A stretch of 44,348 bases of DNA. It comes from a virus (Duplodnaviria > Heunggongvirae > Uroviricota > Caudoviricetes). This document shows, in pieces, positions 19,439 to 38,944 of this stretch. Made by a program: the position numbers and the translations under genes. Position 1 is the first letter of the stretch, and each line of letters starts with the position of its first letter. The notes under the pieces were generated by a model. That model worked only from the letters and a program-made list of their open reading frames with translations. It made no database searches and had not been told where the DNA came from. The DNA lies in IMG/VR virus record IMGVR_UViG_2740892273_000003; one strand, given 5' to 3'.

Positions 19439-23119
<3,681 letters not shown>

Positions 23120-23665: not shown

Positions 23666-23699
23666 TGTTCATTCCACGGACAAAAACAGAGAAAGGAAA

Positions 23700-23880: not shown

Positions 23881-23955
23881 ACCCGCAATGATAATAATTA
23901 TCATCTGCATGCCGCAACACCTGAAAGTCAACGCGCCCTGAAAGCTGATTTGCTG

Positions 23956-24270
23956 TTACAAGCAATGCTTTTTTCTTTTTGTTTTATTGCTCATTGCCAC
24001 CAACTGTTCAGCCATCTCTCTTGTCACACTACCAGAAACCCTTTCTTGAATTTTCACAGAAAATTTTCTGGATGTAGTAGCATCGACATTAAAAAATCTG
24101 GATGTCATCAGGCAGTTATTAACAATTGGCATCAGCTCACTTACGATTGTAAAAAATTCCCGGTAAAGCTCATTTTGCTTTTCAACACACAGCTTTCCAC
24201 AATCGTCCAGCTTACGCTCAAGAGCACTTAACCTTTCCATTATTGAATTAATTTTTTGCAACTCTTTCAT
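23956..24270 (-). CDS. Hypothetical protein (104 aa) between the lysis genes and cos
   Basis: ATG at ~24270 preceded by AGGAGG at 7-nt spacing; the longer track ORF (to 24531) is an upstream extension running through a centromere-like palindrome. Confidence 0.5.
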   Translation of the reverse strand: MKELQKINSIMERLSALERKLDDCGKLCVEKQNELYREFFTIVSELMPIVNNCLMTSRFFNVDATTSRKFSVKIQERVSGSVTREMAEQLVAMSNKTKRKKHCL

Positions 24271-24294
24271 CAAAACCTCCTGACAAAGATACCG

Positions 24295-24310
24295 TGCGAC
24301 CACGGTCGCA
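24295..24310. repeat. sopC-like centromere palindrome copy 1 (TGCGACCACGGTCGCA)
   Basis: 16-bp inverted repeat with 7-bp arms TGCGACC/GGTCGCA; one of five copies in the window. Confidence 0.6.
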
Positions 24311-24514
24311 CGCTCCTGAATACATGCCCTGTTTCTTCCACCCTCGCACAGGACTGGCGAGCATGAGGGACAAACCCGCGAATCATTAGCGCGGTAAAAA
24401 CCCGGTGTGCATCGTTTTTGATTATTTCCGCACACTCGCGCAGAGGAGTTCCCCGTCGGGCTACGGTCATGGTTAATGCGGAAATACGGCGACGATGCAG
24501 CGCGGTATTTAATG

Positions 24515-24530
24515 TGCGACCACGGTCGCA
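24515..24530. repeat. sopC-like centromere palindrome copy 2 (TGCGACCACGGTCGCA)
   Basis: Identical 18-mer GTGCGACCACGGTCGCAC to copy 1, about 220 bp away in the same orientation. Confidence 0.6.
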
Positions 24531-24550
24531 CACGAGAAACAAAGAGATTT

Positions 24551-24862
24551 TTATGCTACAGAGGAACAAGCTGGCGGGTAATTCAGCGTAGTGAATACCG
24601 GCATCTCCATCTTGTATGCGTAATGATACTCAGCAGTTGCTCCAGCAGACGCTTTCCAGCCAGGAAGCATCAAAATAGCATCAGCACAACGAAGCATTGC
24701 AAAGCAAATATCCATGTATTCACGTTGTGTCAGACCATTAGGCAAAGTGGCTGGATTCAAGACAGAGTGACCATGTCGTGACAAACGATCTGCCTCTTTA
24801 TTAAAGGCGTCACGATTAAAGTTCTCATATCCAGTCATTGGCCCGGCAATATAAATTTTCAT
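24551..24862 (-). CDS. DUF4406-like protein (103 aa, nucleoside 2-deoxyribosyltransferase-like fold)
   Basis: MKIYIAGPMTGYENFN...VLNPA pattern recalled for DUF4406 proteins; occupies the post-Rz position. Confidence 0.45.
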   Translation of the reverse strand: MKIYIAGPMTGYENFNRDAFNKEADRLSRHGHSVLNPATLPNGLTQREYMDICFAMLRCADAILMLPGWKASAGATAEYHYAYKMEMPVFTTLNYPPACSSVA

Positions 24863-24903
24863 TCACTATCCAACAAATTGAGTTCGTTTTTGATACAGAG
24901 GGA

Positions 24904-25371
24904 TTAATTCGGGCATTGCGTCTTGATGTATTCCTGAAGCGTTCTCAGTGCTGTCTGGTCTCTGATGATTCCGTCCCGGATACCGAGAACGTTTCGTCCA
25001 GCAACTGGAGAGAGTTCGACGGTGGCATCATTGCCCATGCCGGAGGCGCTGGAGGTTTCGGCTGAGGATGGCACAGAGCATTTTCCTTTGACGAGCACCC
25101 GACCACCATTATCAAGCTTGCGCCGAAGAGCATCATTTTCAGCTTTCGCATCAGCCAACTCCTTCGTGTATTTTGCATCGAGCGCAGCAACATCACGCTG
25201 ACGCTGCTGCATGTCAGCGATGGTGGCGGTCGCCTGCTTCAGCTCACTGACTTTTTTATCACGCTGTTCTTTGTAGGCGATGGCGTTATCACGGTAATGA
25301 TTAACAGCCCACGACAGGCAGACGATGATGCAGATAACCAGTGCGGAGATAATTGCGGTTACTCTGCTCAT
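24904..25371 (-). CDS. Rz: i-spanin Rz
   Basis: [31 protein letters not shown]... (N-terminal TM, then coiled coil) matches the lambda Rz N-terminus; start overlaps R stop. Confidence 0.8.
24945..25151 (-). CDS. Rz1: o-spanin Rz1, embedded in Rz in the +1 frame
   Basis: [21 protein letters not shown]... has a lipobox (VVGC) followed by a proline-rich segment [11 protein letters not shown], as in lambda Rz1. Confidence 0.7.
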
Positions 25372-25868
25372 TGCTGCCCCCACAAACAGACTTCACGCTC
25401 AATCTCACGGCGAGTCATCAGCCCTTTCCATTGCTTGCCGCCAGCATATGTCCAGCGACGTAGTTGATCACATGCACCTTTGATATCGCCCTGGTTGATT
25501 TTGCGAAGAAGTGTCGATGTTCTGAAATTGCCTGCACCCACGTTGTAAACGAACGAGTAAAGAGCACCACGCGTTGTTTCCGGTATATCGACTTTGATGT
25601 ACGGGTTAATTTGTCTGGCGACAGTAGCAAGGTCTTTATTCAGGAGAGCTTTGCATTCTGCTTCGGTATACGTTTTACCGAGCATAATGTCTTTTCCTGT
25701 ATGCCCGTAACATACAGTCCATACACCAACGATGTCTTTGTAGGGGTTATGTCTCACACCTTCCAGACCATCGTTGCCGCTCGGACCAGAGATGAGCACA
25801 GATGCTATGGCAATAGCCCCGCCACCAATAGCAGTTGCGACAGCTTTGCGTAATGATGACTGCATCAT
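25368..25868 (-). CDS. R: SAR endolysin (T4-lysozyme-type muramidase with N-terminal signal-arrest-release domain)
   Basis: Gly/Ala-rich weakly hydrophobic N-terminus [18 protein letters not shown] followed by the E...D...T catalytic triad region [24 protein letters not shown]. Confidence 0.7.
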
Positions 25869-26137
25869 ATTTCCTTCGGTGCTCTCTTTCCCAATTCACC
25901 AATAACCATCGCCGTGGCGGAAATATTATTGGCATCAGTTTTATCCAATATGTCCTGCAATATCTTCGTGCGCTTCATCTGCTCGCGTTTATTGAGCCGG
26001 TATGTAAGTACACCGAGGATAATGCTGAACGCGACACCGATAATGAAGCCCCAATCCTGCAATGACAGGCTGGCAAAGAACGCAGTAAGACCAGCACTAC
26101 CATAAGATGCGCTGCTGTATCGTTCATCCATCTTCAT
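25865..26137 (-). CDS. S: Class II holin, pinholin-like (90 aa)
   Basis: Dual-start MKM..., two hydrophobic segments ([11 protein letters not shown] and [16 protein letters not shown]), charged C-terminus; immediately upstream of a SAR endolysin. Confidence 0.6.
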
Positions 26138-26232
26138 ATCTCTTACCTCGCAATAGTTGCTGAGGTTTCGGCTTGGAAACTATACGGCGAGAAATAACCC
26201 CATCAAAAACGGCAGGGGAATATATTCTTCAG

Positions 26233-27354
26233 TTACTCAAATAACTTTTTCACTTCATCAACTGTCTGAAGATAACGTTCACCCTCAATCTCAATACCGA
26301 TTGCCTGACGACCTAACTTCAGCGCGGCTTTAATAGTAGAGCCTGATCCCATAAAGAAATCGGCAACGATATCTCCGGGGCGGGAACTACTTTTTATAAT
26401 ATGTTCCATCATCGCTGCAGGTTTTTCACATGGGTGCTTGCCAGGATAATATTGCACAGGAGGAAACTCCCATACATCGGTATAAGGTACATCAGCAGTA
26501 ACATGAAATGGGCGGCGCAAATTTTCATACTGAGCCTTCAAATCATCATACTGCTTCTTTACTTCCTCATAACGCAATTTCAGATCGCTATAACGCTTTT
26601 CATGTTCTGAATAATCAACATTAAAAGGATATGGACACGGGACACCGAGTGAATCTGCCTTCCTGCGAAATAATTCGCATAGTTTATTAAAATCACTTAA
26701 TGATGGAAGCCGCCACTGCGAATAAGAAAACCAGTGCGAACACATCTGCTTTCCTGTTGCTGAATTAATGTCTGCGGCTGATATATCTAACTGACGGCGA
26801 GCCAGCGAAAAAGCATCAATTAGTGGAGAAAAAATATTTTTTCTTAAATCTGCACATTTTGAAGCATAACCTGACTGACCTTTAGCATAACCTGACGCGC
26901 CGTAATGCTCTGCAAATAATATTCTTTCAGTGGCAGGAAAATAAGCCCTTAAACTTTCTTTATGACAACCGCGCCACATACCACTGGGTTTAGCCCAAAT
27001 GATATGGTTCAGAACATTGAAACGGTCGCGAGTTAATAATTCAATTTTTGACGCAAGGCGAGAGCCGGTAAACATATACAGGCTGCCATTAGGGGCCAAT
27101 ATCCGCCAAAATTCTGCCAAAAATTCATCAATCCACCCCAAAAAGTCAGCATCGCTATCCCACTGGTTATCCCATGCGTTAGCCTTTACGCCGAAGTATG
27201 GTGGGTCTGTTGCAATCAAATTGACCGAGTTATCAGGGATGGTTTTGATAAATTGCAGAGAATCTGCGCAAACGAGTTGCGCGCCATGAATATTAGTGGT
27301 TTTGAACATAGCTATTATTTTTTTGCCTGGGTAAGCTAACCCGGCGATGCGCAT
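26233..27354 (-). CDS. Orphan DNA amino-methyltransferase (N6-adenine or N4-cytosine); true start may be the internal MFKTT
   Basis: DPPY motif near the N-terminus (LIATDPPYFG) and FxGxG AdoMet motif near the C-terminus (DFFMGSGST); no adjacent restriction endonuclease gene. Confidence 0.75.
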   Translation of the reverse strand: MRIAGLAYPGKKIIAMFKTTNIHGAQLVCADSLQFIKTIPDNSVNLIATDPPYFGVKANAWDNQWDSDADFLGWIDEFLAEFWRILAPNGSLYMFTGSRLASKIELLTRDRFNVLNHIIWAKPSGMWRGCHKESLRAYFPATERILFAEHYGASGYAKGQSGYASKCADLRKNIFSPLIDAFSLARRQLDISAADINSATGKQMCSHWFSYSQWRLPSLSDFNKLCELFRRKADSLGVPCPYPFNVDYSEHEKRYSDLKLRYEEVKKQYDDLKAQYENLRRPFHVTADVPYTDVWEFPPVQYYPGKHPCEKPAAMMEHIIKSSSRPGDIVADFFMGSGSTIKAALKLGRQAIGIEIEGERYLQTVDEVKKLFE

Positions 27355-27443
27355 CGCGGGTGGGCTTTAGGTTCAGCCTATAGCTCTGGCATGGGTTGAC
27401 CGCAGGACAAGCTGCAACTTGTCCTGCACCCACTTTTCAGGCA

Positions 27444-27467
27444 CAAAAAAACCGCCATAAAGGCGGC
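27444..27467 (-). terminator. Intrinsic terminator (tR'-like) between a candidate late promoter and the methyltransferase/lysis/virion genes
   Basis: Minus strand reads GCCGCC-tttat-GGCGG followed by TTTTTTT; preceded by hairpin GTTGGGT-tttttgt-ACCCAAC and followed by a 10-bp-stem hairpin GCAGGACAAG-n6-CTTGTCCTGC. Confidence 0.6.
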
Positions 27468-27505
27468 TTGTTGGCTGTTGGGTACAAAAAACCCAACTTA
27501 ACAAA

Positions 27506-27534
27506 ACAATAACTAAAAACCGTAATTTTGCCAA
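27506..27534 (-). promoter_or_regulatory. Candidate late promoter (PR'-like): TTGGCA, 17-bp spacer, TATTGT
   Basis: Sigma70-like hexamers on the minus strand ~30 nt upstream of the hairpin/terminator series; a centromere-like palindrome sits just upstream. Confidence 0.45.
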
Positions 27535-27554
27535 GCTTTTTCGTTTTTGTGCTG

Positions 27555-27570
27555 TGCGACCGTGGTCGCA
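27555..27570. repeat. sopC-like centromere palindrome copy 3 (TGCGACCGTGGTCGCA, opposite orientation)
   Basis: Same arms as copies 1 and 2 with the central dinucleotide GT instead of AC; extended palindrome CTGTGCGACCGTGGTCGCACAG. Confidence 0.6.
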
Positions 27571-27576
27571 CAGTTT

Positions 27577-27804
27577 TTAGAAAGTTGCCTGCTTATATTC
27601 ATCGGTCAAAGAATATCGACCAGACCCGCTACGCTTTGCAACCCCAAAACAGATCATCTGTTCGATGATAAATTCAACGGCAGCTTGACTCAAAAAACAG
27701 GCTTCGCTTAACTCTTTCAGGGAAATGCGTGGGTATCCACGCATAACACATTCCACACTCAGGGCCGCTTCAGTCATATTTCCACGAATTTCATTAATAT
27801 TCAT
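27577..27804 (-). CDS. Hypothetical small protein (75 aa), possible winged-helix DNA-binding protein
   Basis: ORF with a helix-turn-helix-like segment ISLKELSEACFLSQAAVEFI; immediately upstream of the candidate late promoter. Confidence 0.45.
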   Translation of the reverse strand: MNINEIRGNMTEAALSVECVMRGYPRISLKELSEACFLSQAAVEFIIEQMICFGVAKRSGSGRYSLTDEYKQATF

Positions 27805-27817
27805 AACGCCTCTCTAA

Positions 27818-28057
27818 TCAATCTTGAAACTGGAAATCAACATCAGCCATAAAGCGGTTCAACTCAGCCAGTTTTGGCCCCATAGTCCCAACTAAGCGAC
27901 CAGCCAGTCGGTCTGCCAGGTTGGTACTGTTGAAACCATATTCCTTTTCGAAACGTTCAACCTTCTGCCACAACTCATACAGTTCGTTAGCTATCTCCGC
28001 AACGTCGTCGCGCATTTTTTCGTTACCTTGATAATTCATAATATCCTCCAAATTCAT
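27818..28057 (-). CDS. Hypothetical acidic small protein (79 aa)
   Basis: ORF in an operon with the 75-aa gene; divergent from the toxin-antitoxin pair. Confidence 0.45.
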   Translation of the reverse strand: MNLEDIMNYQGNEKMRDDVAEIANELYELWQKVERFEKEYGFNSTNLADRLAGRLVGTMGPKLAELNRFMADVDFQFQD

Positions 28058-28204
28058 ATAGTTAGTGGGTTATTGCCCCTCAATGACACGAACTGTAACT
28101 CTGCCAAACGAACACATCCAGTGTTATTTTTCACTTTTTAGTGAAATTTTTAATTTGCGCTTTTTTCTTGTTTTGGTGTATTTTATGGCTATGGAGGCTA
28201 TAAT

Positions 28205-28516
28205 ATGTTTAACGTGATAACCCACCCTGCAGCACTGGATGAACTGCTTGAACTACCAGATGATTTGCGAGGTCGCATGACCAGATTAATTGAGCGACTG
28301 GAGAAGGAAGGCAACAAACTGAAGATGCCCCATAGCCGTGTAATAGGTGGAGGGCTTTTTGAACTACGAGTAGGGGATAAAAACATCGCAAGAACGCTGT
28401 ACGCCTACGCGACTGGTAACGAAATTTATCTATTGCATGCATTTGTAAAAAAGACACAGAAAACACCGGTGAAGGCTATTGAAATCGCCAGAACTCGCCT
28501 GAAGGAGATGAACTGA
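28205..28516 (+). CDS. Type II toxin, RelE/HigB superfamily (N15 gp49-like, 103 aa)
   Basis: Small basic protein resembling gp49-like/HigB toxins; GGAGG RBS 7 nt upstream; encoded upstream of an HTH protein with ATGA start/stop overlap; opposite strand to flanking phage genes. Confidence 0.65.
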   Translation: MFNVITHPAALDELLELPDDLRGRMTRLIERLEKEGNKLKMPHSRVIGGGLFELRVGDKNIARTLYAYATGNEIYLLHAFVKKTQKTPVKAIEIARTRLKEMN

Positions 28517-28803
28517 TGAAAGCGAAAGGCATCCCGTTTAACGAAGTAAAAGAAAAACTTCTCAACACTCCAGAAGCCATCAAAGGATATGAAGAGGCCG
28601 ATAAAGAGCTGGAGATGGTCGAAATGTTATACGAAATGAGGGAAAGAGCAGGTTTAACGAAGTCAGCTCTGGCTGAACGAATGGGATTGCGCCCGTCAGC
28701 TATCAGCCGCCTGGAAAGCAATCCTTTAGGGGCAAGCATGAAAACTTTATCAAAATATGCCCAAGCATGCGGTGCAACGATTAATATTAATGCCGTCTAT
28801 TGA
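28516..28803 (+). CDS. HTH (XRE-family) antitoxin, HigA-like (95 aa)
   Basis: Helix-turn-helix segment LTKSALAERMGLRPSAISRLE; translationally coupled to the toxin gene. Confidence 0.65.
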   Translation: MKAKGIPFNEVKEKLLNTPEAIKGYEEADKELEMVEMLYEMRERAGLTKSALAERMGLRPSAISRLESNPLGASMKTLSKYAQACGATININAVY

Positions 28804-28846
28804 TTAGACCCTTTTCGCTACCCCGTCCAGAAGGGCGGGGTGTGTA

Positions 28847-29065
28847 TCAATGATGCAAACACTCAACAGCAATAACTTGTTGGCAATTCTGAGCAATCTC
28901 CCGCGACATACTAACAAGTCGTGAAATCTCGCCAAGATGCAAGCTGGCTTCTGGAGAAGCCAGAGCAACGCTAACCAGATCCAAAACGGCGTCGATGTCT
29001 TTTAGGTTTGATCCGAGTTCTTCAAGAGTTGATACAGGTGCTTCAGTCATTGAATCTAATACCAT
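28847..29065 (-). CDS. Small protein (67-72 aa) downstream of a LexA box; candidate SOS-inducible antirepressor
   Basis: ORF with alternative ATGs at ~29065 and ~29050; a LexA-box-like sequence lies ~25 bp upstream. Confidence 0.45.
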   Translation of the reverse strand: MVLDSMTEAPVSTLEELGSNLKDIDAVLDLVSVALASPEASLHLGEISRLVSMSREIAQNCQQVIAVECLHH

Positions 29066-29087
29066 TTAATTAAAAAAGGTTATTTGA

Positions 29088-29107
29088 TACTGTATAAAAT
29101 TACAGGG
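29088..29107 (-). promoter_or_regulatory. LexA box (SOS operator) overlapping a candidate promoter
   Basis: TACTGTATAAAATTACAGGG fits CTGT-N8-ACAG with an AT-rich centre; on the minus strand it overlaps TTGAGT-17-TACAGT promoter-like hexamers. Confidence 0.6.
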
Positions 29108-29134
29108 TAAAACTCAAATTTTATAGCCAACTTT

Positions 29135-29289
29135 CAATGGATTAACTGGTTAAATATCTTTGTAGTCCGATACTTATGTTCCCTTCCTACGCCTCGCCCA
29201 ACCACTTTCAAAAGCCCATCACCACCATCAGAAAAGCTCTTTTCGCTCCGTTTTCGTATCATTTCAAAAAGCAATGCCTTTTTGTCCAT
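29135..29289 (-). CDS. Unannotated small ORF (about 50 aa) with a strong Shine-Dalgarno sequence
   Basis: ATG at ~29289 preceded by GGAGGG at 5-nt spacing; translation MDKKALLFEMIRKRSEKSFSDGGDGLLKVVGRGVGREHKYRTTKIFNQLIH; below the track's 60-aa cutoff. Confidence 0.3.
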
Positions 29290-29298
29290 TTATCCCTC

Positions 29299-29312
29299 CG
29301 TGACCAGTCACA
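29299..29312. repeat. Palindrome CCGTGACCAGTCAC (GTGAC-N2-GTCAC), copy 1 of 2
   Basis: Shares the 14-bp core GTGACTGGTCACGG (reverse complement) with the palindrome at 40633-40652. Confidence 0.5.
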
Positions 29313-29634
29313 CTTTGAGCGCAAGTTTCAGCCTCGTGGTTGTAAGGTGGCATGAGCCTTCACCATCAAAAATGCATTCTGAAACAGGCATTTTTTGACC
29401 ACATCGCGGACAAGTAGTAGATAGCTGTTTCTGCAACTCCTTATAGTTTTTCCTGATCAGCAGTCCGATGACTTCGTTCTCTGAATATGGAACTCGCCCT
29501 GGTCTACGCAATACACAAATTTCCCCCAACATACGTAACTCGTCAGGTTCCAGAATCCAGTCACGTCTTGATGTTCCTTCCTTCTTCAACCGTTCCCTGC
29601 GTCTTCTTTGCCGTTCTGCCGGTGTCAGCGCCAT
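29308..29634 (-). CDS. Hypothetical protein (108 aa) with basic N-terminus and CxxC motif
   Basis: ORF; Arg-rich N-terminus MALTPAERQRRRRERLKKEG and CPRCG motif. Confidence 0.5.
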   Translation of the reverse strand: MALTPAERQRRRRERLKKEGTSRRDWILEPDELRMLGEICVLRRPGRVPYSENEVIGLLIRKNYKELQKQLSTTCPRCGQKMPVSECIFDGEGSCHLTTTRLKLALKV

Positions 29635-29649
29635 AAATCCTCCTGAAAA

Positions 29650-30180
29650 TTACTTAACCCAATTAACTACACCGCCAGCGGCCACAACCGCCCTTTCACA
29701 GTCACGCTCATATCTCAAAGGTTGAAATACACCATCAATAAAATATTTATCTCCACCAAACGCTGCAGGAAGTGAAACAGAAAACTGAATATGACCATCC
29801 GGAGTTACCGGAGAGTTGCCAGCCAGTCTACGCAACACAGCCTTAACGGCCTCAATACGGTCATCATCAACTTTTTCTACAATATTGGAATTTAAATACT
29901 TCGAAGCCTTGCTATGCCAATCGCTGGTTTTAGGGTCTTGTCCATCCATCAAACGCCAAGCTTCAGCGATTAACTCATAGCCAGTGACAGTGGCTTCCTG
30001 CGCATCACCAATAAGTCGTGTAATCTCTCTTTCAAGCCGACCGCCTAGCTCTGTTTTAGTGCAATGTTCTGACCAATCGCCAGCCTCAAGCAGCGCGAGA
30101 ATGCTTAAAATATCGTCCAATAGAACGGTAGTATTATCGACTTCCTTCTGAAACTCACCGGCTACTGATTTATGCATCAT
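29650..30180 (-). CDS. Hypothetical protein (176 aa)
   Basis: ORF in the early-right operon; contains a PVTPDGHIQFSVSLP segment related to the PVTPDGWISCSERMP segment of the neighbouring DUF551-like protein. Confidence 0.5.
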   Translation of the reverse strand: MMHKSVAGEFQKEVDNTTVLLDDILSILALLEAGDWSEHCTKTELGGRLEREITRLIGDAQEATVTGYELIAEAWRLMDGQDPKTSDWHSKASKYLNSNIVEKVDDDRIEAVKAVLRRLAGNSPVTPDGHIQFSVSLPAAFGGDKYFIDGVFQPLRYERDCERAVVAAGGVVNWVK

Positions 30181-30479
30181 TCGTCATCCTCATCTGAGTC
30201 ATCCTCATCACAGGATGAGAGTAGTGGGTTAGTCATTCGCCCTACTTGAGTGGCGTAGCCACGCCGACAGAGATTGCGCAGCACACTGTATATTTCGAAC
30301 ATCTCGGTTCGTTCATCACCAACATCAAGCTCAGATGCTATAGCGTGGCATTCAGTCGCGAGAGCCGATATTTTCTGAAATAACTCTGCTTTATTCACTC
30401 TTCGACTCCTGCGGCGGTTCTGGTAGTGGCATCCAGTGAGTTGCTTGCTCAATACCATTACCCGGCTTAATCGTTGCAT
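30177..30479 (-). CDS. Hypothetical acidic protein (100 aa as given; start uncertain)
   Basis: ORF overlapping the 3' end of the upstream gene by ~89 nt; poly-Asp/Glu C-terminus; true start likely internal. Confidence 0.3.
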   Translation of the reverse strand: MQRLSRVMVLSKQLTGCHYQNRRRSRRVNKAELFQKISALATECHAIASELDVGDERTEMFEIYSVLRNLCRRGYATQVGRMTNPLLSSCDEDDSDEDDE

Positions 30480-31140
30480 CTCCGCGCCGAAAGGTGCTTC
30501 CGGTATAGCGTGCGGAGCATATTAGCGGTTCAACCAGAGAGCTATCGAAATTCACCGAAATAAGCACGTTCTGGCCCTTTTCAGGCATTCGCTCACTACA
30601 GCTTATCCAACCATCCGGAGTTACCGGATAGTTGCCAGCCTCATACGCGACCCTTATCCAGTGCATAAGCATTTCAGTACTTACACATCCACAATCAACA
30701 TCAATTTTGTCATGCTGCTGTTCCAGCCATTGCTCAAAAGTTAACTTGTAAGTTTGGCTTACAGGTTTGGCTTCCAGTTCTGCTATGTGATTTTTGGCTG
30801 ATTCCAACTCAATCGACAATTTTTCCAACTGCTCTTTATGATTTTTATATTCCTGATATGCGTGCCAAGACTGACCTTTGCGCACACTATCAGTGATATC
30901 AGTAATCTGTTCTGGTGTTAGCGTGGTCAGTGGCTGTGATGGGAAAATAAGCACTTTCCCGGAATCCCAATCAAAACCAGCGTGAATTGACTGAACCTCA
31001 ACTGAAGGTGTTGAACCAATGCTGCCAGGCGAATGAACAACGATTGTTACATCCATATCGCGACGATGGCTGTGGTTGTTGGACAAAATACGATTCAACA
31101 AAATACGATTCACCAACTCAGAAAATTTAGAAAATTTCAT
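30391..31140 (-). CDS. DUF551-domain protein (249 aa)
   Basis: C-terminal WISCSERMPEKGQNVLISV...WMPLPEPP pattern typical of DUF551 proteins from lambdoid early regions. Confidence 0.55.
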   Translation of the reverse strand: MKFSKFSELVNRILLNRILSNNHSHRRDMDVTIVVHSPGSIGSTPSVEVQSIHAGFDWDSGKVLIFPSQPLTTLTPEQITDITDSVRKGQSWHAYQEYKNHKEQLEKLSIELESAKNHIAELEAKPVSQTYKLTFEQWLEQQHDKIDVDCGCVSTEMLMHWIRVAYEAGNYPVTPDGWISCSERMPEKGQNVLISVNFDSSLVEPLICSARYTGSTFRRGDATIKPGNGIEQATHWMPLPEPPQESKSE

Positions 31141-31505
31141 GCTGATTCACCTTTCTCTGCTCTCTCCTGTCGGAACATCACTATCATCAGGTCGCCTTTT
31201 GTCGCTATCTTGGCTGTTGTGCCTGGCTCAATGCGGCTAAGTTCAAATGCGTCATAGAACGCCTCCAACGCTTTCTGGCGTTTTTCCTGTTTGCGGCGCT
31301 TTCCCCACTGCTTTAGAAAAACAGAGGCCGCCCACTTCCCCGCACTGAACATGATGTAAAACCAACCGAGAAGTGCCAGACCGGTATTTAGGGCCGTATC
31401 GATCGTTATCGTGGTGTCGATATTCACTACGCCACCTCCTGAAAATTTCCCTGATAAAACGCCAACACACGCTGCATAACTTCGCTCTTCCGACAATCGT
31501 GACAA
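31137..31505 (-). CDS. Hypothetical membrane protein (122 aa as given; start uncertain)
   Basis: ORF overlapping the upstream gene by ~79 nt; one predicted TM segment LALLGWFYIMFSAGKWAASVF. Confidence 0.3.
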   Translation of the reverse strand: MSRLSEERSYAACVGVLSGKFSGGGVVNIDTTITIDTALNTGLALLGWFYIMFSAGKWAASVFLKQWGKRRKQEKRQKALEAFYDAFELSRIEPGTTAKIATKGDLMIVMFRQERAEKGESA

Positions 31506-31846
31506 ATCATGTTCAAGCGCCTGTCGTAACGACGTATTTCTCCGTCAGGTAATGACCAGATAAGGTCTGGATCAACCACTACCGATTTCTTCGGCTTTAC
31601 TCTTGATAGTTTTTTACGGGCGTTTTGCCAGTCCTTGCGTGCTTGTGCAGACAGAAATATCCCGGAGCCAGAGATATACAAATCACCGCTGGCAGCAAGC
31701 TCTCTTGATAAACGACTAACAGCACACCGGCTAATACCAGTTTCATCCGCAAGTTGCCTAACCGTTCCTCGTCCATTCAGGCGCACGAGTTCCACAATTT
31801 GTTTATTCAGTTCTTCCCTCTGTTCTGGTGTAAAAGCCTTTGCCAT
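31427..31846 (-). CDS. HTH DNA-binding protein (139 aa)
   Basis: Helix-turn-helix-like segment VRQLADETGISRCAVSRLSRELAASG. Confidence 0.5.
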   Translation of the reverse strand: MAKAFTPEQREELNKQIVELVRLNGRGTVRQLADETGISRCAVSRLSRELAASGDLYISGSGIFLSAQARKDWQNARKKLSRVKPKKSVVVDPDLIWSLPDGEIRRYDRRLNMICHDCRKSEVMQRVLAFYQGNFQEVA

Positions 31847-32445
31847 TACGATTCTCCTTGCCCTTTTACAAGACGGGAGAAAATTGCGGATACATATTTA
31901 GCCTGATGAATAGCATCAGCCAGGGCATTGTGTCGTTCGCCATCAAATGGCATATCTTTTTTAGGATTAAAACCAATAAACTGACCAAGATTAACGATTG
32001 TTCGAACATCCTGATCATTAAAATATTCCCACGGACAGGCTAAGCCAACGCGCTCATAAGCACCGCGTAAAATTACATTATCGAACGTTGCTCCATTTCC
32101 CCATACTTTCAACTTTTTTAAATTACATGCATGGCAAGTAATAAAGTGTGATAATTCAAAAAGTGCATCCTTAATATCAAGGGCATCATTAGTACAAATA
32201 GCGGCTCTGGCTTCCTTGCTCTGTTTCAACCACCATAAAATGGTATCACCATCGGCGATACCACCATTCAACATCGAGCTTCTGAGATTCACTGGCACAT
32301 AAAAGGTAGGACCTAATTCCTCACTTTCTGGAGAAAAAAACACTGCCCCGATAGAAACAATTGCAGCACATGTATTAGTACCCATTGTTTCAAGGTCAAT
32401 CATTACATCAGACCGTTTCCTGTCGTAAATAATCTGATTAGTCAC
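31846..32445 (-). CDS. DEDD-type 3'-5' exonuclease (199 aa)
   Basis: N-terminal MIDLETMG (Exo I motif) and C-terminal H...ALADA (Exo III-like motif). Confidence 0.65.
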   Translation of the reverse strand: MTNQIIYDRKRSDVMIDLETMGTNTCAAIVSIGAVFFSPESEELGPTFYVPVNLRSSMLNGGIADGDTILWWLKQSKEARAAICTNDALDIKDALFELSHFITCHACNLKKLKVWGNGATFDNVILRGAYERVGLACPWEYFNDQDVRTIVNLGQFIGFNPKKDMPFDGERHNALADAIHQAKYVSAIFSRLVKGQGES

Positions 32446-32468
32446 GAATAATTATCCTCAACGTTTAT

Positions 32469-32672
32469 CTATACCCAAAACTTCTGTTGATATGTTCTGG
32501 ATGGTTTTGGCGCTCTTTCTGATTCAGGTAAATGAACATAAACGCAATATCCATCACCTAAAAAATCAGAACGAACAACCAGAACTTTCTTACCACGCCG
32601 CCGATAAGTATCTGAAAGACGCTCTGCTTCATCATGCGTCATCGGCCCCTGCTTAAATGGCGTTATTTTCAT
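32469..32672 (-). CDS. Hypothetical small protein (about 67 aa from MKITPF)
   Basis: The track ORF starts inside a centromere-like palindrome; the internal ATG gives a 67-aa product. Confidence 0.4.
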   Translation of the reverse strand: MKITPFKQGPMTHDEAERLSDTYRRRGKKVLVVRSDFLGDGYCVYVHLPESERAPKPSRTYQQKFWV

Positions 32673-32973
32673 TTTCTTGTGCGACCACGGTCGCACCCTC
32701 TCTGATTTCCAAGTAACGCTTAATCCAAAGATTTTCTATATGCTTATTACCTGGCTGATTTGATAAATACCAATCGGCAATTACAGACTGCTTATTACTA
32801 TCTGGTCGTGTCCTGTAACCACAAGTTGGACACCAGATAACATATTCATTTCTTACCCCCGAATACCTTAATTCTGGCTTCGACGGTTTCCTGAACATAA
32901 CTTGTTTACAAAGGCAGAATGGCACTTCCTGCCCGATGGCGTTTGATGATTTCACTGCGCTTCTCCGCCGCAT
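32653..32973 (-). CDS. Hypothetical protein with zinc-ribbon-like motifs (106 aa as given)
   Basis: CxC...CxxC spacing (FCLCK ... WCPTCGY); start uncertain (internal MFRKP also possible). Confidence 0.4.
   Translation of the reverse strand: MRRRSAVKSSNAIGQEVPFCLCKQVMFRKPSKPELRYSGVRNEYVIWCPTCGYRTRPDSNKQSVIADWYLSNQPGNKHIENLWIKRYLEIREGATVVAQENENNAI
32680..32695. repeat. sopC-like centromere palindrome copy 4 (TGCGACCACGGTCGCA)
   Basis: Same 16-bp palindrome in the early-right operon, at the junction of two small ORFs. Confidence 0.6.
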
Positions 32974-33616
32974 TTAATAATGCAGTTCGATTTAAGCTCA
33001 GACATCGCGACTTAATTAAAAGCCAGCGTTCTTTATAATCTTGTCTCCAGCTATCAATAGATATATTCAGTAGAAAACTCAGATGCCTGTCCTGTTCTCT
33101 CTCATCAACTGCCTCAGCACACGTAAGTTCTGACTTAACCTGCTGTGCCGCGTAATAAATCAATTTTCTCATGGCTTTTTTCGTGGAGGCCTTCATTTTT
33201 TTAAACCCGCCACCCGAATGCGCAACCAGAAAATCAAGCCATAACCACTGACAAACAATCACATCATTGTTGTAGTCAGGCTTGCATCCGTAGCAATAAT
33301 AAAGCCAGGCTGATTCCTCGTTATTCAACTGACCAATAGCCCTGCGCCAGCTGGCGCTCTGAAAATCAATATCAGTGAGCAACATTGATGATTGTTTAAA
33401 TGTTTTGCCCTGGTGGAATCTAACCGGCTCAGCAGGAACAGACACTTCGTATGAGTTATCATCACCTACACTGATTGACCGGACTGGTTTATTGTTAAAG
33501 CGTCCTGATCTGCCTAGACGCATCTGCTCAAGCTGGACCTCTAGGATGCCACGCTGGCGATAATGAATATCAGCCAATGCCGTGGAGACGCAGCTGCGTA
33601 TATACTCAAGCTCCAC
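32906..33616 (-). CDS. Hypothetical protein (236 aa) translationally coupled to cro; possible late regulator, function not established
   Basis: ORF overlapping the cro 3' end; contains a CxxC pair (YYCYGC); no family recognised by eye. Confidence 0.45.
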   Translation of the reverse strand: MELEYIRSCVSTALADIHYRQRGILEVQLEQMRLGRSGRFNNKPVRSISVGDDNSYEVSVPAEPVRFHQGKTFKQSSMLLTDIDFQSASWRRAIGQLNNEESAWLYYCYGCKPDYNNDVIVCQWLWLDFLVAHSGGGFKKMKASTKKAMRKLIYYAAQQVKSELTCAEAVDEREQDRHLSFLLNISIDSWRQDYKERWLLIKSRCLSLNRTALLNAAEKRSEIIKRHRAGSAILPL

Positions 33617-33854
33617 GCTTACGGCTCTCCTTAATCGACTGCTTTACCCGCCGAGTTGTAAAGTCACTCTTCAGCTTGTAAGCAGTACGAACTTCAATAT
33701 CACTTTGCCGCAATGAAGGAATCTCTCCAGCGGTTAACCATTGGTAAACAGCACCGGGTGTTACACCTACCCCAGCCGCTGCTTTTTCTACACTGCCAAA
33801 GTGGCGAATAAGTTCTTCTGGTTTCATGCGGTTATTATAAGCAATAAATCGCAT
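33606..33854 (-). CDS. cro: Cro-like DNA-binding protein (82 aa)
   Basis: Small HTH protein (AAGVGVTPGAVYQWL) transcribed divergently from the repressor gene across an operator-containing 64-bp spacer. Confidence 0.7.
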   Translation of the reverse strand: MRFIAYNNRMKPEELIRHFGSVEKAAAGVGVTPGAVYQWLTAGEIPSLRQSDIEVRTAYKLKSDFTTRRVKQSIKESRKRGA

Positions 33855-33870
33855 TTAAAGCCAGCTATAA
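33855..33870. promoter_or_regulatory. Operator-like site TTAAAGCCAGCTATAA between cro and cB
   Basis: Imperfect copy of the adjacent 16-bp palindrome; located at the cro start. Confidence 0.5.
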
Positions 33871-33880
33871 TAAATAAATT

Positions 33881-33896
33881 TTATAGCCAGCTATAA
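33881..33896. promoter_or_regulatory. Operator-like palindrome TTATAGCCAGCTATAA between cro and cB
   Basis: Perfect 7-bp inverted arms TTATAGC/GCTATAA with a 2-bp centre, flanked by AT-rich promoter-like sequence. Confidence 0.55.
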
Positions 33897-33918
33897 GAAG
33901 ATCATTTATGATTAAGCT

Positions 33919-34515
33919 ATGAAAACACGAGGCGAACGACTGAAAGCACGCCGTTTAGAGATGAAGCTGACGTTGCGAGAAGTTGCTGAGGCTGTCGATA
34001 TCTCTATTGCAGGCGTCCAAAACTTAGAACGTGGCGACGTAATGCCGTCACTGGAGATAGGTATTGCCCTGGCTAAATGCTTACGCAAGCCAGTGCATTG
34101 GGTGCTGTATGGGACAGAATATGACCCTGATCGCATTCCTGTTATTGGCACAACTGAAAGTGGACCTGATGAAGAGTGGAAGCCAGGACAGGTTCCAAAT
34201 ACTGAGCGATTCCTGCCATTCATCAGCCAGCGCAATACTGTTTATGCGTTAACTATCAGCAATCTGGCGCAGGGAAACTATCAGCCTGGCGATTTTCTCC
34301 TGGTCGATTCTGCGCTGGAACTGGTCCCCGGCGAGGATGTTCTGGTTCGTGATACTGCAGGAAATATCACCATCCAGCGCCTGGCCCGTTTTGATGATGA
34401 AAATTACTATCTGGACGGAACAAATTCACAACGCGCTATCTTCAGGAAAAGCGATCTTGAATTTGTTCACCAAATAGTCGGAACGATCAAATCATTCATG
34501 GTTGAGGGTAGATGA
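33919..34515 (+). CDS. cB: Prophage repressor, cB/cI-type (HTH_XRE N-terminal domain plus LexA/S24-like C-terminal domain that appears to lack the catalytic Lys)
   Basis: N-terminal HTH LREVAEAVDISIAGVQNLERG; the C-terminal domain aligns by eye to the cI/LexA peptidase fold (PGDFLLVD) but has QRLAR where the catalytic Lys is expected. Confidence 0.75.
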   Translation: MKTRGERLKARRLEMKLTLREVAEAVDISIAGVQNLERGDVMPSLEIGIALAKCLRKPVHWVLYGTEYDPDRIPVIGTTESGPDEEWKPGQVPNTERFLPFISQRNTVYALTISNLAQGNYQPGDFLLVDSALELVPGEDVLVRDTAGNITIQRLARFDDENYYLDGTNSQRAIFRKSDLEFVHQIVGTIKSFMVEGR

Positions 34516-34616
34516 CTTAATACGGGGTTTATTGTTTGCTGTAAATCTGGTTTAATGCAGAGCATATGTTCTGTGGGTTGACTCAGGTTACAGCAGCAGA
34601 AAAAAGACGAAAAAAA

Positions 34617-34645
34617 ACCCGAGTCGGCAAACTCGGGTCCTTTTC
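34617..34645 (+). terminator. Intrinsic terminator between cB and repA
   Basis: A-tract, ACCCGAGT-cggcaa-ACTCGGGT, then CCTTTTC. Confidence 0.6.
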
Positions 34646-34760
34646 AGGAAGCAGCCACAGTAACGCGACGGATTCCGTCAATTCAAGATGCGTTTATTGT
34701 GGCTGCTCCTGCGGATTTTTTCAACCCGAAAAAACATAATTCGCATGGAATGGCTAAAAA

Positions 34761-37700
34761 ATGACATTAAACGATTTCTATGCGGATCGCTTTGGCAGCG
34801 ATCCGTTCTCGCTAATTGAAGCAGCACGGGATGAACTAACCGAGCTGGCACAGATGGCTGGTATCAACTGGTCTGCCTGTTCCGACAACATCCAACTCAA
34901 CCCTCGCGGGGGTGTTGAGCGTTACTCTTCATACAATAAAACATCCCCAGAAGCTCTCGAAAAGAGCCTCAAAGGACGCGTAGAAATTTACTCCCGGCTG
35001 GAACACAGCAAAGGGATTGATTACCCGTTCATTAACTTCGTCCATAAAGGCAGCGATGCTGGCTCATGGAGCGGTTTCTCCTTCCTGTTTTCTGAATATC
35101 GCCGTGAGCAACAACGGAATAATGCGACCGTGGTCGCACAACCGGAAGAAGAACGGGCAAGAATAGAACGTCAGGCCGAAGCACGTCGTCGCCGTGAAGA
35201 ACAAAAACGAATTAATGACCTGAAAAACAACCAAATGGACCATGAACGTTTGCTGGGATGGCTGGCATTCCACAGTGCTTGGGAACATGCTCCTGCAGAA
35301 GACGGCTCATGGCCATATGCGATTAAAAAAGGTATTCGTGACGTTTTTAATTCGTGTGATGTGCGTCGCGTGACCAGTCACGACAGCGCAAAATGGAGCA
35401 GGGGGCCAACCACGTATATGGCTATCCCTCTGGCTCACCTGGACGGTCGTTACGATGGTCGTATTGTTGGTTGGCAGCGAATCGACAAACAAGGTGGAAA
35501 ATACCAGACCAGCGCCGTAACCAGCGGCGATTTCGTCGGTGCCTGCTTTGTTATCGGTGAGCTGAAAGGGGCGCAAAACATCGCTGTTACAGAAGGTTTT
35601 GCTACTGGTGCATCCATCTGGCTTGCCACGAAAAAAGATAAACGCTTTGACGCTGTGGTTGTCGCTGTATCCGCTAACAACATGGTTCATGTTGTGGAAC
35701 AACTGGTAAACATGTACCCGGCGGCAAAAATCACCTGCGCACTGGATAATGACCGGAAATCAGCTACAGAAGGAAAAGGGAATACCGGCCTGCGGACTGG
35801 CTATGAAATCTTATCGAAATTCAACGATGTCCGCTGCGTCTATCCAACTTTTGAAGACGATCCGCAAATGGAGTGCAGTGACTTCAACGACCTGCACAAA
35901 CTACGTGGACTTCGTGAAACAGCACGTCAACTGTTTGCAACTGCAAACCGCCTGAAAACTGGCACTGATTTGCTATCTCTGACGCTCAACCGCCTGAAGA
36001 CAATTAAGCGGGATAACCGTCGTACTTTTGCCAAAGAGCTGCTGAGAGCAGTGGATATTGGCATGCTAACCTGTCCGGTTCCTAACAGTCCGTCAGACTT
36101 ATTTAACATGTTCTGCATCGTCCTGCGTGAAATTGGGCTGGAAAATATCTATCGCGCTACGGTAAAAGACCACATTGCCCGTCGCCTGAATAAAAAGTGC
36201 CGTATTGCCCAGGCTCCGCGCTCATTCAGCGAACGAATAACTGATCCCAATAAACGTCCTCAACATATCACCTATAAGCGTTTTGAAACTTCGGTAATGA
36301 CCGATGACGTCCTGAAGTATGTGCAATCACTACAGGGGATAGTCATCGTTCGTGCTGGTATGGGTTCCGGCAAATCTACTGGATTGTTACGACCTTTAAT
36401 GCATAGCTCAGAACGTGGTATCTCTGTTGCTCACCGTGTTTCCCTTATTGGTGGCCTGTGGGAAATGATGACAGAAGGAAAAGGTGTAAAAGCCGATATC
36501 CTGCACTATCAGGACCCTGGCTATCAGGAAATGGCTCCATACGCCAGTAAACTGACCATCTGCATAAACTCGATTGTTAAAAACTGCTGGCAACCATTGA
36601 TGCGCCAGCACGACTATTTTGGCTTTGACGAGGCCACGCAAGGGCTACGTGCCGTTCTTTCCGGTCGGGCTATGGAAAACCCGGTGGCTGTATTCAATAC
36701 GTTAATTGACGCGCTGGCCAGAACGGAACAACACCCAATAATGGTGGATGCTGATGCGAACGATCTGCTGGTTGACCTGGCTGAACTGGCTATGAAACGC
36801 CGTGAAGAACTAGGTTTACCGGCATGGCTGCAGATCCACGTAATTGAATTACCTGTTGATGTTCGCAACCGCGAAACAGGTGAGCCAATCCGGGTTTTTT
36901 ATACAGAAAAAGATCGCATTATGACCGAGGTGGTGAAAGCTGTATCGAATGGCGAAAAAATCATGTTGGCCACCGACAGCTCCACCTTTGCAGAAGATGT
37001 GACCGCCACCCTGAGAATGCATTTTCCTGGTAAGAAATTTCTGTGTGTAAACCAGAAAAACAAACCAGAGCCAGAAGTTGAAGCATTTACCAATCAACCG
37101 AAAAAGATGGTCAAAAAATACGACGGCCTGATTTATAGCCCGTCTATTTCATCCGGTGTGTCGATTGAGCAAAAACATTTTGACCGTCATTTCGGCATGT
37201 TCTGTGGTGAAGTTGTACCCAGCGACGCAGTGCAAATGCTACGCCGCGACCGTACAGCAAAAGAATTTATTATCGGCTTTGATAAAGCTCGCGCAAAACG
37301 TGAAACTGACCCGCAAAAAATAGAACGAGCATTCGCCCAGGCATTGCTTGCTACCGCAGGCATGAACGGTGAACTGACGGATGTCGTTTTCGATGGCGAC
37401 CGTATATCAATGGGGGTGGCCAATACCGACTTTACCAGGATGAAAATTAAAGCAGCCGCAATTGAAGCGTCTGCGCGTAACGACTACGCCAGCAACATGA
37501 TCTGCATCATGCACAGCGACGGTTATAAGGTATCGCCGCTGGCCACCGATTATGCTGCGAATGATATCGGTAAAGATCTGCGTAAAGAAGCGCGGGATAT
37601 TGTGTGGGAACAGACACTGGATCTGCATCTCAATACAGAAACTCCACAAGAATCAGAGCGTGAAGAACTGCTAAAAAAACGCGCGCTGACGCTTGAAGAA

Positions 37701-38756
37701 CAAGCAAAACTTGTCCGCTGGGATATTGAGAACGAACTGAAACTACCGGTTGAAGAAGGCACGCTGAAATTCTATTTCGATGGTGCTCGAGACAAAGTTC
37801 GCCGCTATGAAACAATGCTTTTAGATGAGGTAACAGCTCGTCGTTACGACCGGGAAGAAGCAGCCATCAATTTTACCTACGCATACCGTCAGGCGGGACA
37901 GTGGCAATATTTTGTAGTGACCGCGATGACTCGCGAGCAGGCTGATGATGTCTTTAAAACTAAATTCCCTGGAATAATCGACTACAAGGTAAAAGCTACT
38001 CCTACTGTTGAAGTCGGGGCGCGCGGTTTCTATGCGCTTAAATCAGCAACTCTCCGGCAGTACTTTATCGACTGCGGTATCAACCCTGAGACTATGACCG
38101 GCGAGGCGACTCAGGAGCGTCTCAAATTCGCTCGAGATAACCTCATGACAGCCGAACGCCGTGACCTGTTGAATAACGTTCTGCACATTGGTGGTTTTAT
38201 GACGCCAAAAGGGAAGCCTAAAGTGCCGGAAGCGTTGTTTAAAAACATTTGCGACTCTCTTGGCCTTAAAACAGGTAAACGTCGCGGCAGAGACGGCGAT
38301 AAGCGTCCAACCTTGCGTTTTGTTGAGCCTGAATCAGCGGCATTTATGCTGGATATTCTTGTTCAGCGTCAGAAAGATGGCCTAACCCTAAAAACGCGTA
38401 AAGCCGAGAAGACAGCCATCGAAATGGATCGCGATTTGGATCTCAATATATATATGGATGATAAAACGCGATCCACAAACGAGCAGGTTCAAAACGCCCC
38501 TCATTCAGTAATTTCTGAGGCTTTGGCCGTATTGCCGGTGGCTGTTCCTGAGTCCTGGGCGATGAGTGCGCTTTCCGGTGAGGAGCTGGCCACTATGTCA
38601 TCATGGTCATCAGCCAGCATAGCTATGACGTTTGCATCTCTGTATCTCACAGAGTTCATGGATCACTTGTCCAGCAATGAATTGCGGCGGTTACGAGAAT
38701 ACATTACCGGGAATAGCTCATGCAGCTACGAAGAGCAGGGCGCTTTCTATGGGTAA
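34761..38756 (+). CDS. repA: Replication protein RepA, multidomain primase-helicase (1331 aa, N15 RepA-like)
   Basis: Toprim-like primase motifs (NIAVTEGFATGASI; CALDNDRK), Walker A (GMGSGKST) and Walker B (YFGFDEAT) in the central region; size close to the ~1.3 kaa N15 RepA as recalled. Confidence 0.8.
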   Translation: MTLNDFYADRFGSDPFSLIEAARDELTELAQMAGINWSACSDNIQLNPRGGVERYSSYNKTSPEALEKSLKGRVEIYSRLEHSKGIDYPFINFVHKGSDAGSWSGFSFLFSEYRREQQRNNATVVAQPEEERARIERQAEARRRREEQKRINDLKNNQMDHERLLGWLAFHSAWEHAPAEDGSWPYAIKKGIRDVFNSCDVRRVTSHDSAKWSRGPTTYMAIPLAHLDGRYDGRIVGWQRIDKQGGKYQTSAVTSGDFVGACFVIGELKGAQNIAVTEGFATGASIWLATKKDKRFDAVVVAVSANNMVHVVEQLVNMYPAAKITCALDNDRKSATEGKGNTGLRTGYEILSKFNDVRCVYPTFEDDPQMECSDFNDLHKLRGLRETARQLFATANRLKTGTDLLSLTLNRLKTIKRDNRRTFAKELLRAVDIGMLTCPVPNSPSDLFNMFCIVLREIGLENIYRATVKDHIARRLNKKCRIAQAPRSFSERITDPNKRPQHITYKRFETSVMTDDVLKYVQSLQGIVIVRAGMGSGKSTGLLRPLMHSSERGISVAHRVSLIGGLWEMMTEGKGVKADILHYQDPGYQEMAPYASKLTICINSIVKNCWQPLMRQHDYFGFDEATQGLRAVLSGRAMENPVAVFNTLIDALARTEQHPIMVDADANDLLVDLAELAMKRREELGLPAWLQIHVIELPVDVRNRETGEPIRVFYTEKDRIMTEVVKAVSNGEKIMLATDSSTFAEDVTATLRMHFPGKKFLCVNQKNKPEPEVEAFTNQPKKMVKKYDGLIYSPSISSGVSIEQKHFDRHFGMFCGEVVPSDAVQMLRRDRTAKEFIIGFDKARAKRETDPQKIERAFAQALLATAGMNGELTDVVFDGDRISMGVANTDFTRMKIKAAAIEASARNDYASNMICIMHSDGYKVSPLATDYAANDIGKDLRKEARDIVWEQTLDLHLNTETPQESEREELLKKRALTLEEQAKLVRWDIENELKLPVEEGTLKFYFDGARDKVRRYETMLLDEVTARRYDREEAAINFTYAYRQAGQWQYFVVTAMTREQADDVFKTKFPGIIDYKVKATPTVEVGARGFYALKSATLRQYFIDCGINPETMTGEATQERLKFARDNLMTAERRDLLNNVLHIGGFMTPKGKPKVPEALFKNICDSLGLKTGKRRGRDGDKRPTLRFVEPESAAFMLDILVQRQKDGLTLKTRKAEKTAIEMDRDLDLNIYMDDKTRSTNEQVQNAPHSVISEALAVLPVAVPESWAMSALSGEELATMSSWSSASIAMTFASLYLTEFMDHLSSNELRRLREYITGNSSCSYEEQGAFYG
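35123..35138. repeat. sopC-like centromere palindrome copy 5 (TGCGACCGTGGTCGCA), inside repA
   Basis: Same palindrome embedded in the repA coding sequence (encodes NATVVAQ). Confidence 0.6.
38424..38476. other. Candidate replication origin inside the repA 3' region
   Basis: Imperfect inverted repeats GGATCGCGATTT / AAACGCGATCC containing GATC sites, flanking an ATATATATAT tract. Confidence 0.35.
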
Positions 38757-38940: not shown

Positions 38941-38944
38941 AAAT

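Follow-up and report, generated by a model that had tools for sequence, protein, structure and literature searches.

A 44,348-nucleotide stretch of viral DNA (IMG/VR record IMGVR_UViG_2740892273_000003; the whole stretch is referred to here as the window) carries five copies of a 16-bp palindrome that resembles the site for the SopB partition protein of the F plasmid. Our analysis indicated that these palindromes are very probably the dispersed, parS-like centromere sites of an N15-type Sop partition system. The window itself is an N15-like (Ravinvirus) linear phage-plasmid that is oriented opposite to the N15 map. The evidence comprised sequence identity, synteny, conservation throughout the lineage, covariation between protein and site, and linkage to sopAB in an identical relative, and from these data we infer SopB binding, partition activity and any transcriptional effect at the sites of the window.

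Results

Sequence and distribution of the palindromes

An exact search of the whole window for TGCGACC-NN-GGTCGCA (TGCGACCNNGGTCGCA) gave exactly five matches, at 24295, 24515, 27555, 32680 and 35123 (sites 1 to 5), which are the copies listed in an earlier sequence-based note on this DNA (the original prediction). The central dinucleotides were, in order, AC, AC, GT, AC and GT. In 100 dinucleotide-preserving shuffles of the window, the pattern was not matched once (0 expected versus 5 seen), and the five-copy pattern is far beyond chance. No further sites were detected in the window with up to 2 mismatches. All five palindromes were confined to an 11-kb stretch, with spacings of 220 bp to 5 kb between sites, and there were no copies in the 23.6-kb head/tail (structural) arm. 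Four of the five copies formed an 18-bp palindrome, GTGCGACCNNGGTCGCAC; the fifth, located in repA, read ATGCGACC...GCAC and, as it begins with A, was not a full 18-mer.

The F plasmid site was examined for comparison. The sopC sequence, TGGGACCACGGTCCCA, was checked in NC_002483, where it occurs 10 times at a 43-bp spacing, and the predicted difference of one base per arm was confirmed (TGGGACC in F versus TGCGACC in the window). Both sequences are 16-bp palindromes of the type used by a SopB-family ParB, but the 10 to 12 copies of F sopC are clustered in 43-bp tandem repeats beside sopB, whereas those in the window are kilobases apart. A clustered centromere of the F type (tandem 43-bp repeats, TGGGACCNNGGTCCCA, beside sopB) was not found in the window, in which no F-type site was present with up to 1 mismatch.

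Correspondence with the N15 and phiKO2 sites

The arms TGCGACC/GGTCGCA with a free 2-bp center are those of the dispersed N15 centromere. Four sites with identical arms were located in N15: in repA at 33480 (with 1 mismatch), after Q at 35931, at 41125, which is 21 nt ahead of the late promoter's annotated −35, and after gene 58 at 45562. The number of four given for N15 in the original prediction was right, with three sites being exact. These sites, IR1 to IR4, have been tabulated with their flanks as GTGCGACC-NN-GGTCGCAC (PMC7205306, Table 4). N15 SopB foci form on an array of IR sites, while a hybrid SopB with F's domains for DNA binding and for dimerization forms none (PMC7205306). In phiKO2 (GenBank NC_005857), four features annotated as "putative plasmid partitioning site", at 37905, 40345, 45384 and 48618, shared the 18-mer and all four contexts.

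The window palindromes were found at these dispersed, conserved positions, namely, in the 5′ region of repA, 3′ of Q, 5′ of the late promoter and 3′ of the lysis region. As in N15, the sites of this linear phage-plasmid were spread along its right arm. The window differed from N15 in having five sites instead of four, with a 220-bp doublet around a lambdoid cos-proximal segment at the IR4 position, in having a perfect 16-mer at the repA site, where N15 has 1 mismatch, and in the central dinucleotides; the two backbones were ~75% identical. Likeness to phiKO2 extended to the 18-mer, the four shared contexts and a cognate SopB with a DRN recognition helix, but phiKO2 has only four sites and an HK97-like structural module, as opposed to the lambda-like module of the window.

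Individual sites were then compared. Alignment of the site 3 region to N15 41100-41262 and phiKO2 45360-45520 showed that the palindrome, the TTGGCA −35, the −10 and the terminator were all conserved. For site 4, aligned to N15 35870-36010 and phiKO2 40285-40425, changes in the upstream flank fell mostly at third codon positions. The QD1-like open reading frame (ORF) whose last codons contain this site reads G-A-T-V-V-A-Q there, and the ATG of the next gene is 38 nt 3′ of the site. The same-frame reading GCG ACC GTG GTC GCA (A-T-V-V-A) was present at 35124-35138 (RepA codons 122-126) and at 32681-32695 (minus strand, C terminus of the QD1-like protein). The codon position and frame of site 5 in repA were shared with N15, phiKO2, Klebsiella 48ST307 and PY54, and the A-T-V-V-A reading of this site was common to the window, N15, phiKO2 and Klebsiella 48ST307. 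Site 2, after the DUF4406 gene, parallels the phiKO2 site after gp58. The description of copies as lying beside transcription signals was borne out by site 3, 20 nt 5′ of the late −35, and by site 1, next to the AGGAGG of a 104-amino-acid (aa) ORF.

Covariation of site type with the SopB recognition helix

The recognition helix and R219 of F SopB are determinants of sopC specificity (PMC3597684). An alignment of SopB proteins detected (V/I)DRNI in the recognition helix of N15, phiKO2, PhiR46_1 and two contigs that encode a TelN identical to that of the window, and ISRKI in F SopB (PDB 3mky) and PY54 SpyB. The longer readings were VDRNIISR or IDRNIITR for PhiR46_1 and the TelN-identical contigs versus ISRKII(T/M)R for F and PY54. 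An SAR arginine equivalent to F SopB R219 was invariant across the aligned proteins. The N15-type helix was thus found in the SopB of relatives of the window, which itself encodes none. F SopB has the SRK helix, and N15 sites are not used by F SopB.

PY54 provided a second comparison. This linear phage-plasmid (partition genes spyAB) has dispersed palindromes, one of them at the same repA codons, but differs from the window in combining F-type arms with the F-type SRK helix. The PY54 sequence (NC_005069.1) contained eight perfect copies of TGGGACC-NN-GGTCCCA, at 508, 6566, 26513, 31240, 34394, 39870, 40976 and 44409, plus three with 1 mismatch. Its repA copy reads GGG ACC ACG GTC CCA (G-T-T-V-P), and both arms had therefore switched together at the cost of Ala-to-Gly and Ala-to-Pro changes. 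As this concerted switch occurred despite the residue changes, the target of selection is the DNA palindrome and not the protein. The arms were constant over 43 exact sites in 9 replicons, while the center was free (AC in 20, GT in 20 and TC, AT or GC in the rest). In 1 of 10 otherwise collinear N15-like contigs, the site 3 equivalent (position 9785) had a flipped center, with GT for AC, so that the core was inverted with respect to its flanks.

Site type therefore covaried with the recognition helix (DRN in N15 and phiKO2, SRK in F and PY54), and this represents the strongest nonexperimental evidence for recognition of the sites by SopB. PY54 appears to use the specificity class opposite to that of N15 and phiKO2 within the same genome architecture. 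A more distant likeness is to chromosomal parS sites, which are also scattered 16-bp palindromes that seed ParB (Spo0J) complexes (PMC3597684). The parS consensus is, however, tGTTNCACGTGNAACa, and the corresponding ParB is only distantly related (PDB matches with E values of ~1e-4 for a PhiR46_1 SopB query). Overall, the proposal of N15-style dispersed SopB sites was strongly supported by the sequence of the sites, the synteny with N15 and phiKO2 and the covariation with the SopB helix.

Location of sopAB

Examination of complete relatives placed sopB-sopA between the tail-fiber genes and telR, at the opposite end from telN. The original prediction had treated the absence of these genes from the window as unusual. 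Searches by tblastn with SopA and SopB confirmed that the window lacks them. Contig JASYPC010000037.1 was 100.000% identical to window positions 24761-44348 and ran past the tel site into sopA-sopB. Similarly, contigs with a TelN identical to that of the window had SoPB_HTH and ParA genes just beyond the tel site. The absence of the genes is best explained by where the window stops, in IS1 on the left and 53 bp before telL on the right. Exact matches to the RepA and TelN proteins were confined to contigs no longer than 200 kb, with none on chromosome-sized contigs.

A 42.4-kb record labelled circular, plasmid unnamed1 of Shigella sonnei 6207 (NZ_CP061364.1), carried five N15-type sites and ended inside a tail-fiber gene. 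No sopA or sopB was detected in this record by tblastn. The record resembles a linear phage-plasmid whose assembly was truncated.

Number of sites in related replicons

PhiR46_1 and pEC21Z151-46K also had the five-site layout, including the 220-bp doublet, as did ten other N15-like contigs, drawn from independent assemblies and from metagenomes. Plasmids of Escherichia fergusonii and S. sonnei had five sites that were arranged differently from those of the window. Site numbers elsewhere were 4 in N15 and phiKO2, 6 in E. albertii, at least 7 in Klebsiella 48ST307 and at least 8 in PY54; the complete, sopAB-bearing N15-like relatives that were examined had 4 to 6 sites each (Klebsiella 48ST307, at least 7). 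The three sites of the repA-Q-late-promoter region are fixed, and it is between cos and the lysis genes that the number varies. Five copies, which had been contrasted with the four of N15 as something out of the ordinary, are normal for this E. coli lineage, in which they form the standard layout (relatives carry 4 to 8).

The segment of ~170 bp inside the doublet is a second copy of lambdoid cos-proximal sequence, the other copy of which lies at 19604-19775 in PhiR46_1. Further copies were found at 44048-44224 in CP148393 and in chromosomal prophages, where the segment is joined to site 1. CP148393 was rejected as an N15-like relative, as it is an excised lambdoid prophage. This Sop-less element, which served as a negative control, had a tail-fiber module like that of the window and zero sites.

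YDC107_1 (CP025712.1) and metagenome contig ERZ19635430 each contained a head-to-head inverted duplication at the telomere and, with it, protelomerase and RepA in duplicate. Such telomere-centered duplications are as expected from assembler read-through of a hairpin end, and they inflate site counts in these records.

Evidence against the centromere assignment and alternative explanations

Several observations weigh against the assignment. The window encodes neither SopA nor SopB. Positions 1-23918 were 99.9% identical to chromosomal lambdoid prophages of S. sonnei Ss046 (CP000038.1) and CP104423, including the exact 1029-aa Stf tail fiber and the IS1 junction, but only 96 to 98% identical to N15-like plasmids. 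The window could thus have arisen by natural recombination, or it could be a chimeric contig in which plasmid and chromosomal prophage were joined at the shared cos-terminase region; the junction is near 23918/23919. Among 5,426 complete E. coli genomes, the site 1 context was detected in 37 chromosomal versus 15 plasmid places, while the site 3 context was detected in 0 chromosomal versus 16 plasmid places. The context of the IR4-class site was also found on a chromosome. The late/cos-proximal module can thus carry site 1, and in some genomes also the IR4-class site, and these copies can persist without a cognate SopB. Lastly, the minus strand of site 1 was flagged as a stem with a T-rich tail, the simple pattern of an intrinsic terminator.

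One explanation for some of these data is that the molecule truly lost sopAB, by recombination with or integration beside an IS1-bounded chromosomal lambdoid prophage, such that the palindromes are relics that are either nonfunctional or served in trans by the SopB of another replicon. All five copies were perfect, however, with no sign of decay, and both extremities of the window, one 53 bp from telL and the other 90 bp into IS1, were typical of contig breaks and not of biological ends. The left-arm identity to the chromosomal prophages, the five sites without sopAB in the S. sonnei 6207 record and the persistence of single orphan sites in Sop-less chromosomal prophages are all compatible with such a loss. 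Set against them are the exact copy of the right arm that is contiguous with sopAB in another assembly and the restriction of the exact RepA and TelN to contigs no larger than 200 kb. We consider the loss of sopAB unlikely. A role as RNA hairpins or intrinsic terminators, instead of protein-binding DNA, was also considered, as hairpin folding is trivial for every site and, in the N15 record, IR4 is covered by a stem-loop (45560-45584) marked as a putative rho-independent terminator. Our scan, however, flagged just one copy out of five, and the 2-nt spacer allows no loop unless pairs are broken. Folding z-scores were unremarkable for four of the five sites. Homologous sites varied in their flanks but not in their arms, two copies lie in coding sequence in a fixed frame, and a generic hairpin would not need the switch of the PY54 arms in step with the SopB helix. 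This explanation is highly improbable.

It is also conceivable that the palindromes are targets of some other factor (a phage regulator, a restriction-modification system or methylase, or a recombination site) and are only coincidentally Sop-like. The sites are, however, identical to N15 SopB sites that have been used experimentally (PMC7205306), and across N15, phiKO2, PY54 and F their type tracks the SopB helix and not a methylase or repressor. The element does encode a DNA methyltransferase (26233-27354), and the breaks in homology at the edges of site 1 are compatible with a role as a recombination junction. The operators of the CB repressor are different sequences and are separately annotated in N15. 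Such a coincidence can be almost dismissed, and dispersed Sop centromere sites remain the preferred explanation for the five palindromes.

As a formal candidate, a rho-independent terminator (a GC-rich hairpin whose loop has 3 nt or more, with a U tract directly after it) was rejected for all sites other than site 1, which was flagged on the minus strand. An Rfam search of window positions 23600-36000 gave subthreshold chance matches only, with no known RNA family for the sites or the intersite segment.

Palindromes in Sop-less chromosomal prophages

Integrated lambdoid prophages commonly carry the 104-aa gene next to site 1 in a cos-proximal position, and the exact protein was present in 595 indexed blocks, including chromosomes of >1 Mb. 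In 10 of the 10 loci retrieved for the exact protein, GTGCGACCGTGGTCGCAC was located 40 bp 5′ of this gene. E. coli AR_0089, for example, carries an ordinary lambdoid prophage with exactly one site (NZ_CP032265.1, 1636560-1636575) and no gene for ParB, TelN or RepA. On two other chromosomes, the palindrome was ~270 bp 5′ of Nu1 or between the DUF4406 gene and a gene for a 286-aa protein. The site 1 module also occurs in chromosomal prophages without Sop, TelN or RepA, and hence not every copy is tied to a cognate SopB. The chromosomal case is one copy on a mobile module and not a density like that of the window in an unrelated chromosome, and it does not refute the original prediction.

Homology between the window and other genomes broke at the palindrome edges, at 24294-24311 and 24514-24531 (partial matches covering query positions 39-96 or 1-57). 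In elements without site 1, the 170-bp segment ended ~17 bp from the site position. As the partial BLAST matches stop at the edges of the palindromes, these sites mark junctions between mosaic modules. Gene flow between phage-plasmids and phages is known (PMC10879196), and the simplest reading of the chromosomal copies is hitchhiking in this flow. We think it improbable that the 18-bp palindromes act as crossover points for module shuffling and that the orphan copies are bound by the SopB of a coresident N15-like plasmid.

Species-representative genomes (596 Gbp) were also scanned for GTGCGACCNNGGTCGCAC, and the figures given are from the matches listed. Among these, most were single copies in unrelated, high-GC taxa, at roughly the chance level. 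The only distant multicopy case among the matches listed was an alphaproteobacterial (Stellaceae) metagenome-assembled genome (DATEKH010000142.1), with GTGCGACCTCGGTCGCAC at 3316 and 6041, 2.7 kb apart.

Gene content and ends of the window

The closest phage records to the window were PhiR46_1 (98%) and YDC107_1, and N15 and phiKO2 aligned to the Q-cB-repA block at ~75%. The minus strand encodes the lambda-like tail, head and terminase genes (1-23665), the lysis cassette, the DNA methylase, early genes and Q. The cB repressor and a 1331-aa RepA are encoded on the plus strand, and the TelN protelomerase lies at the right end (Table 1). The region at 27449..27534 is a putative Q-dependent late control region by homology to N15, for which a −35, a −10 and a stem-loop are annotated at the aligned positions. 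The right end of the window falls 53 bp short of the telL terminus annotated in PhiR46_1.

Table 1. Coordinates of the palindromes and of other features in the window
Feature	Position	Strand	Description
Site 1	24295..24310		GTGCGACCACGGTCGCAC, 18-bp palindrome; 24 nt 5′ of the ATG of the minus-strand 104-aa gene, adjoining AGGAGG
Site 2	24515..24530		GTGCGACCACGGTCGCAC; 21 nt 3′ of the DUF4406 gene stop; position of N15 IR4 and the phiKO2 48618 site
Site 3	27555..27570		GTGCGACCGTGGTCGCAC; 20 nt 5′ of the late-promoter −35; N15 IR3
Site 4	32680..32695		GTGCGACCACGGTCGCAC; 3′ of Q, in the last codons of the QD1-like ORF; N15 IR2
Site 5	35123..35138		ATGCGACCGTGGTCGCAC; inside repA codons 121-126 (N-A-T-V-V-A); N15 IR1
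IS1 terminal 90 bp	1..90	−	Left boundary of the window; IS1A transposase listed under the match
104-aa gene	23956..24270	−	Directly 3′ of site 1; belongs to the lambdoid cos-proximal module
Intersite segment, ~170 bp	24328..24503		Between sites 1 and 2; copy of lambdoid cos-proximal sequence
DUF4406 gene	24551..24862	−	103 aa; N15 gene 57 homologue, with site 2 after its stop codon
Late promoter-like element and intrinsic terminator	27449..27534	−	−35 TTGGCA at 27534-27529; −10 TATTGT ending at 27506; terminator at 27469-27449
Q-like late antiterminator	32906..33616	−	236 aa; PF06323
repA	34761..38756	+	1331 aa; N15 gp37-type primase/replicase
Protelomerase TelN	42297..44198	−	633 aa

Two further features of the window were recorded. 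Homologues of N15 genes 49 and 48, which encode a RelE/ParE-family toxin (Gp49, 103 aa) and a helix-turn-helix (HTH) antitoxin of 95 aa, lie on the plus strand at 28205-28803, between sites 3 and 4, and constitute a second plasmid maintenance module. Positions 91-840, between the tail-fiber assembly gene and IS1, are AT rich and lack an ORF of at least 80 aa (the first 2 kb has a GC content of 43%). This stretch is common to the ends of chromosomal lambdoid prophages and was not found in the N15-like plasmids that were compared, in which sopB follows.

Discussion

The following mechanism is proposed from homology and from established work on the Sop systems of F and N15. A dimer of the cognate SopB would sit on each 16-bp palindrome through the recognition helix of its HTH (...DRNI..R) and the arginine equivalent to F R219, and the bound SopB would seed a larger partition complex. 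This complex would in turn stimulate the nucleoid-associated SopA ATPase, such that copies of the low-copy-number linear prophage are separated before division. The sopA-sopB genes would lie at the opposite physical end of the linear plasmid, beside telR and beyond the window. Given the position of site 3 against the Q-dependent late promoter and of site 4 after Q, SopB at these two sites probably also modulates late transcription. The original prediction had suggested that SopB binding could couple partition to gene silencing. The Sop system of N15 is reported, in work of 2008 by Ravin, Rech and Lane, to facilitate late gene expression and not to silence it.

As a discovery, the feature in the window adds little: it is a further example of the dispersed, N15-type Sop centromere and differs only trivially in copy number. 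Knowledge of dispersed SopB sites in N15 goes back to 1999-2001, with reports by Ravin and Lane in 1999 and by Grigoriev and Lobocka in 2001. The sole mildly novel thread is the occurrence of orphan copies and of junction positions in chromosomal lambdoid prophages.

These findings have several implications. The five sites merit annotation in the common N15-like plasmids of E. coli and Shigella; in the PhiR46_1 record, for instance, ParA, ParB and the tel sites are marked and the centromeres are not. The difference between N15 and phiKO2, on one side, and F and PY54, on the other, is a clean natural specificity switch, in which one base pair per arm tracks helix changes of the S189D/K191N type, and it could guide the engineering of ParB-parS pairs. 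The presence of a perfect site in Sop-less prophages shows that centromere-like sequences hitchhike during exchange between phage-plasmids and prophages. If orphan copies were bound by the SopB of a coresident plasmid, there would be cross talk between partition and chromosomal prophages or superinfecting lambdoid phages, for example, through titration, incompatibility or altered late expression.

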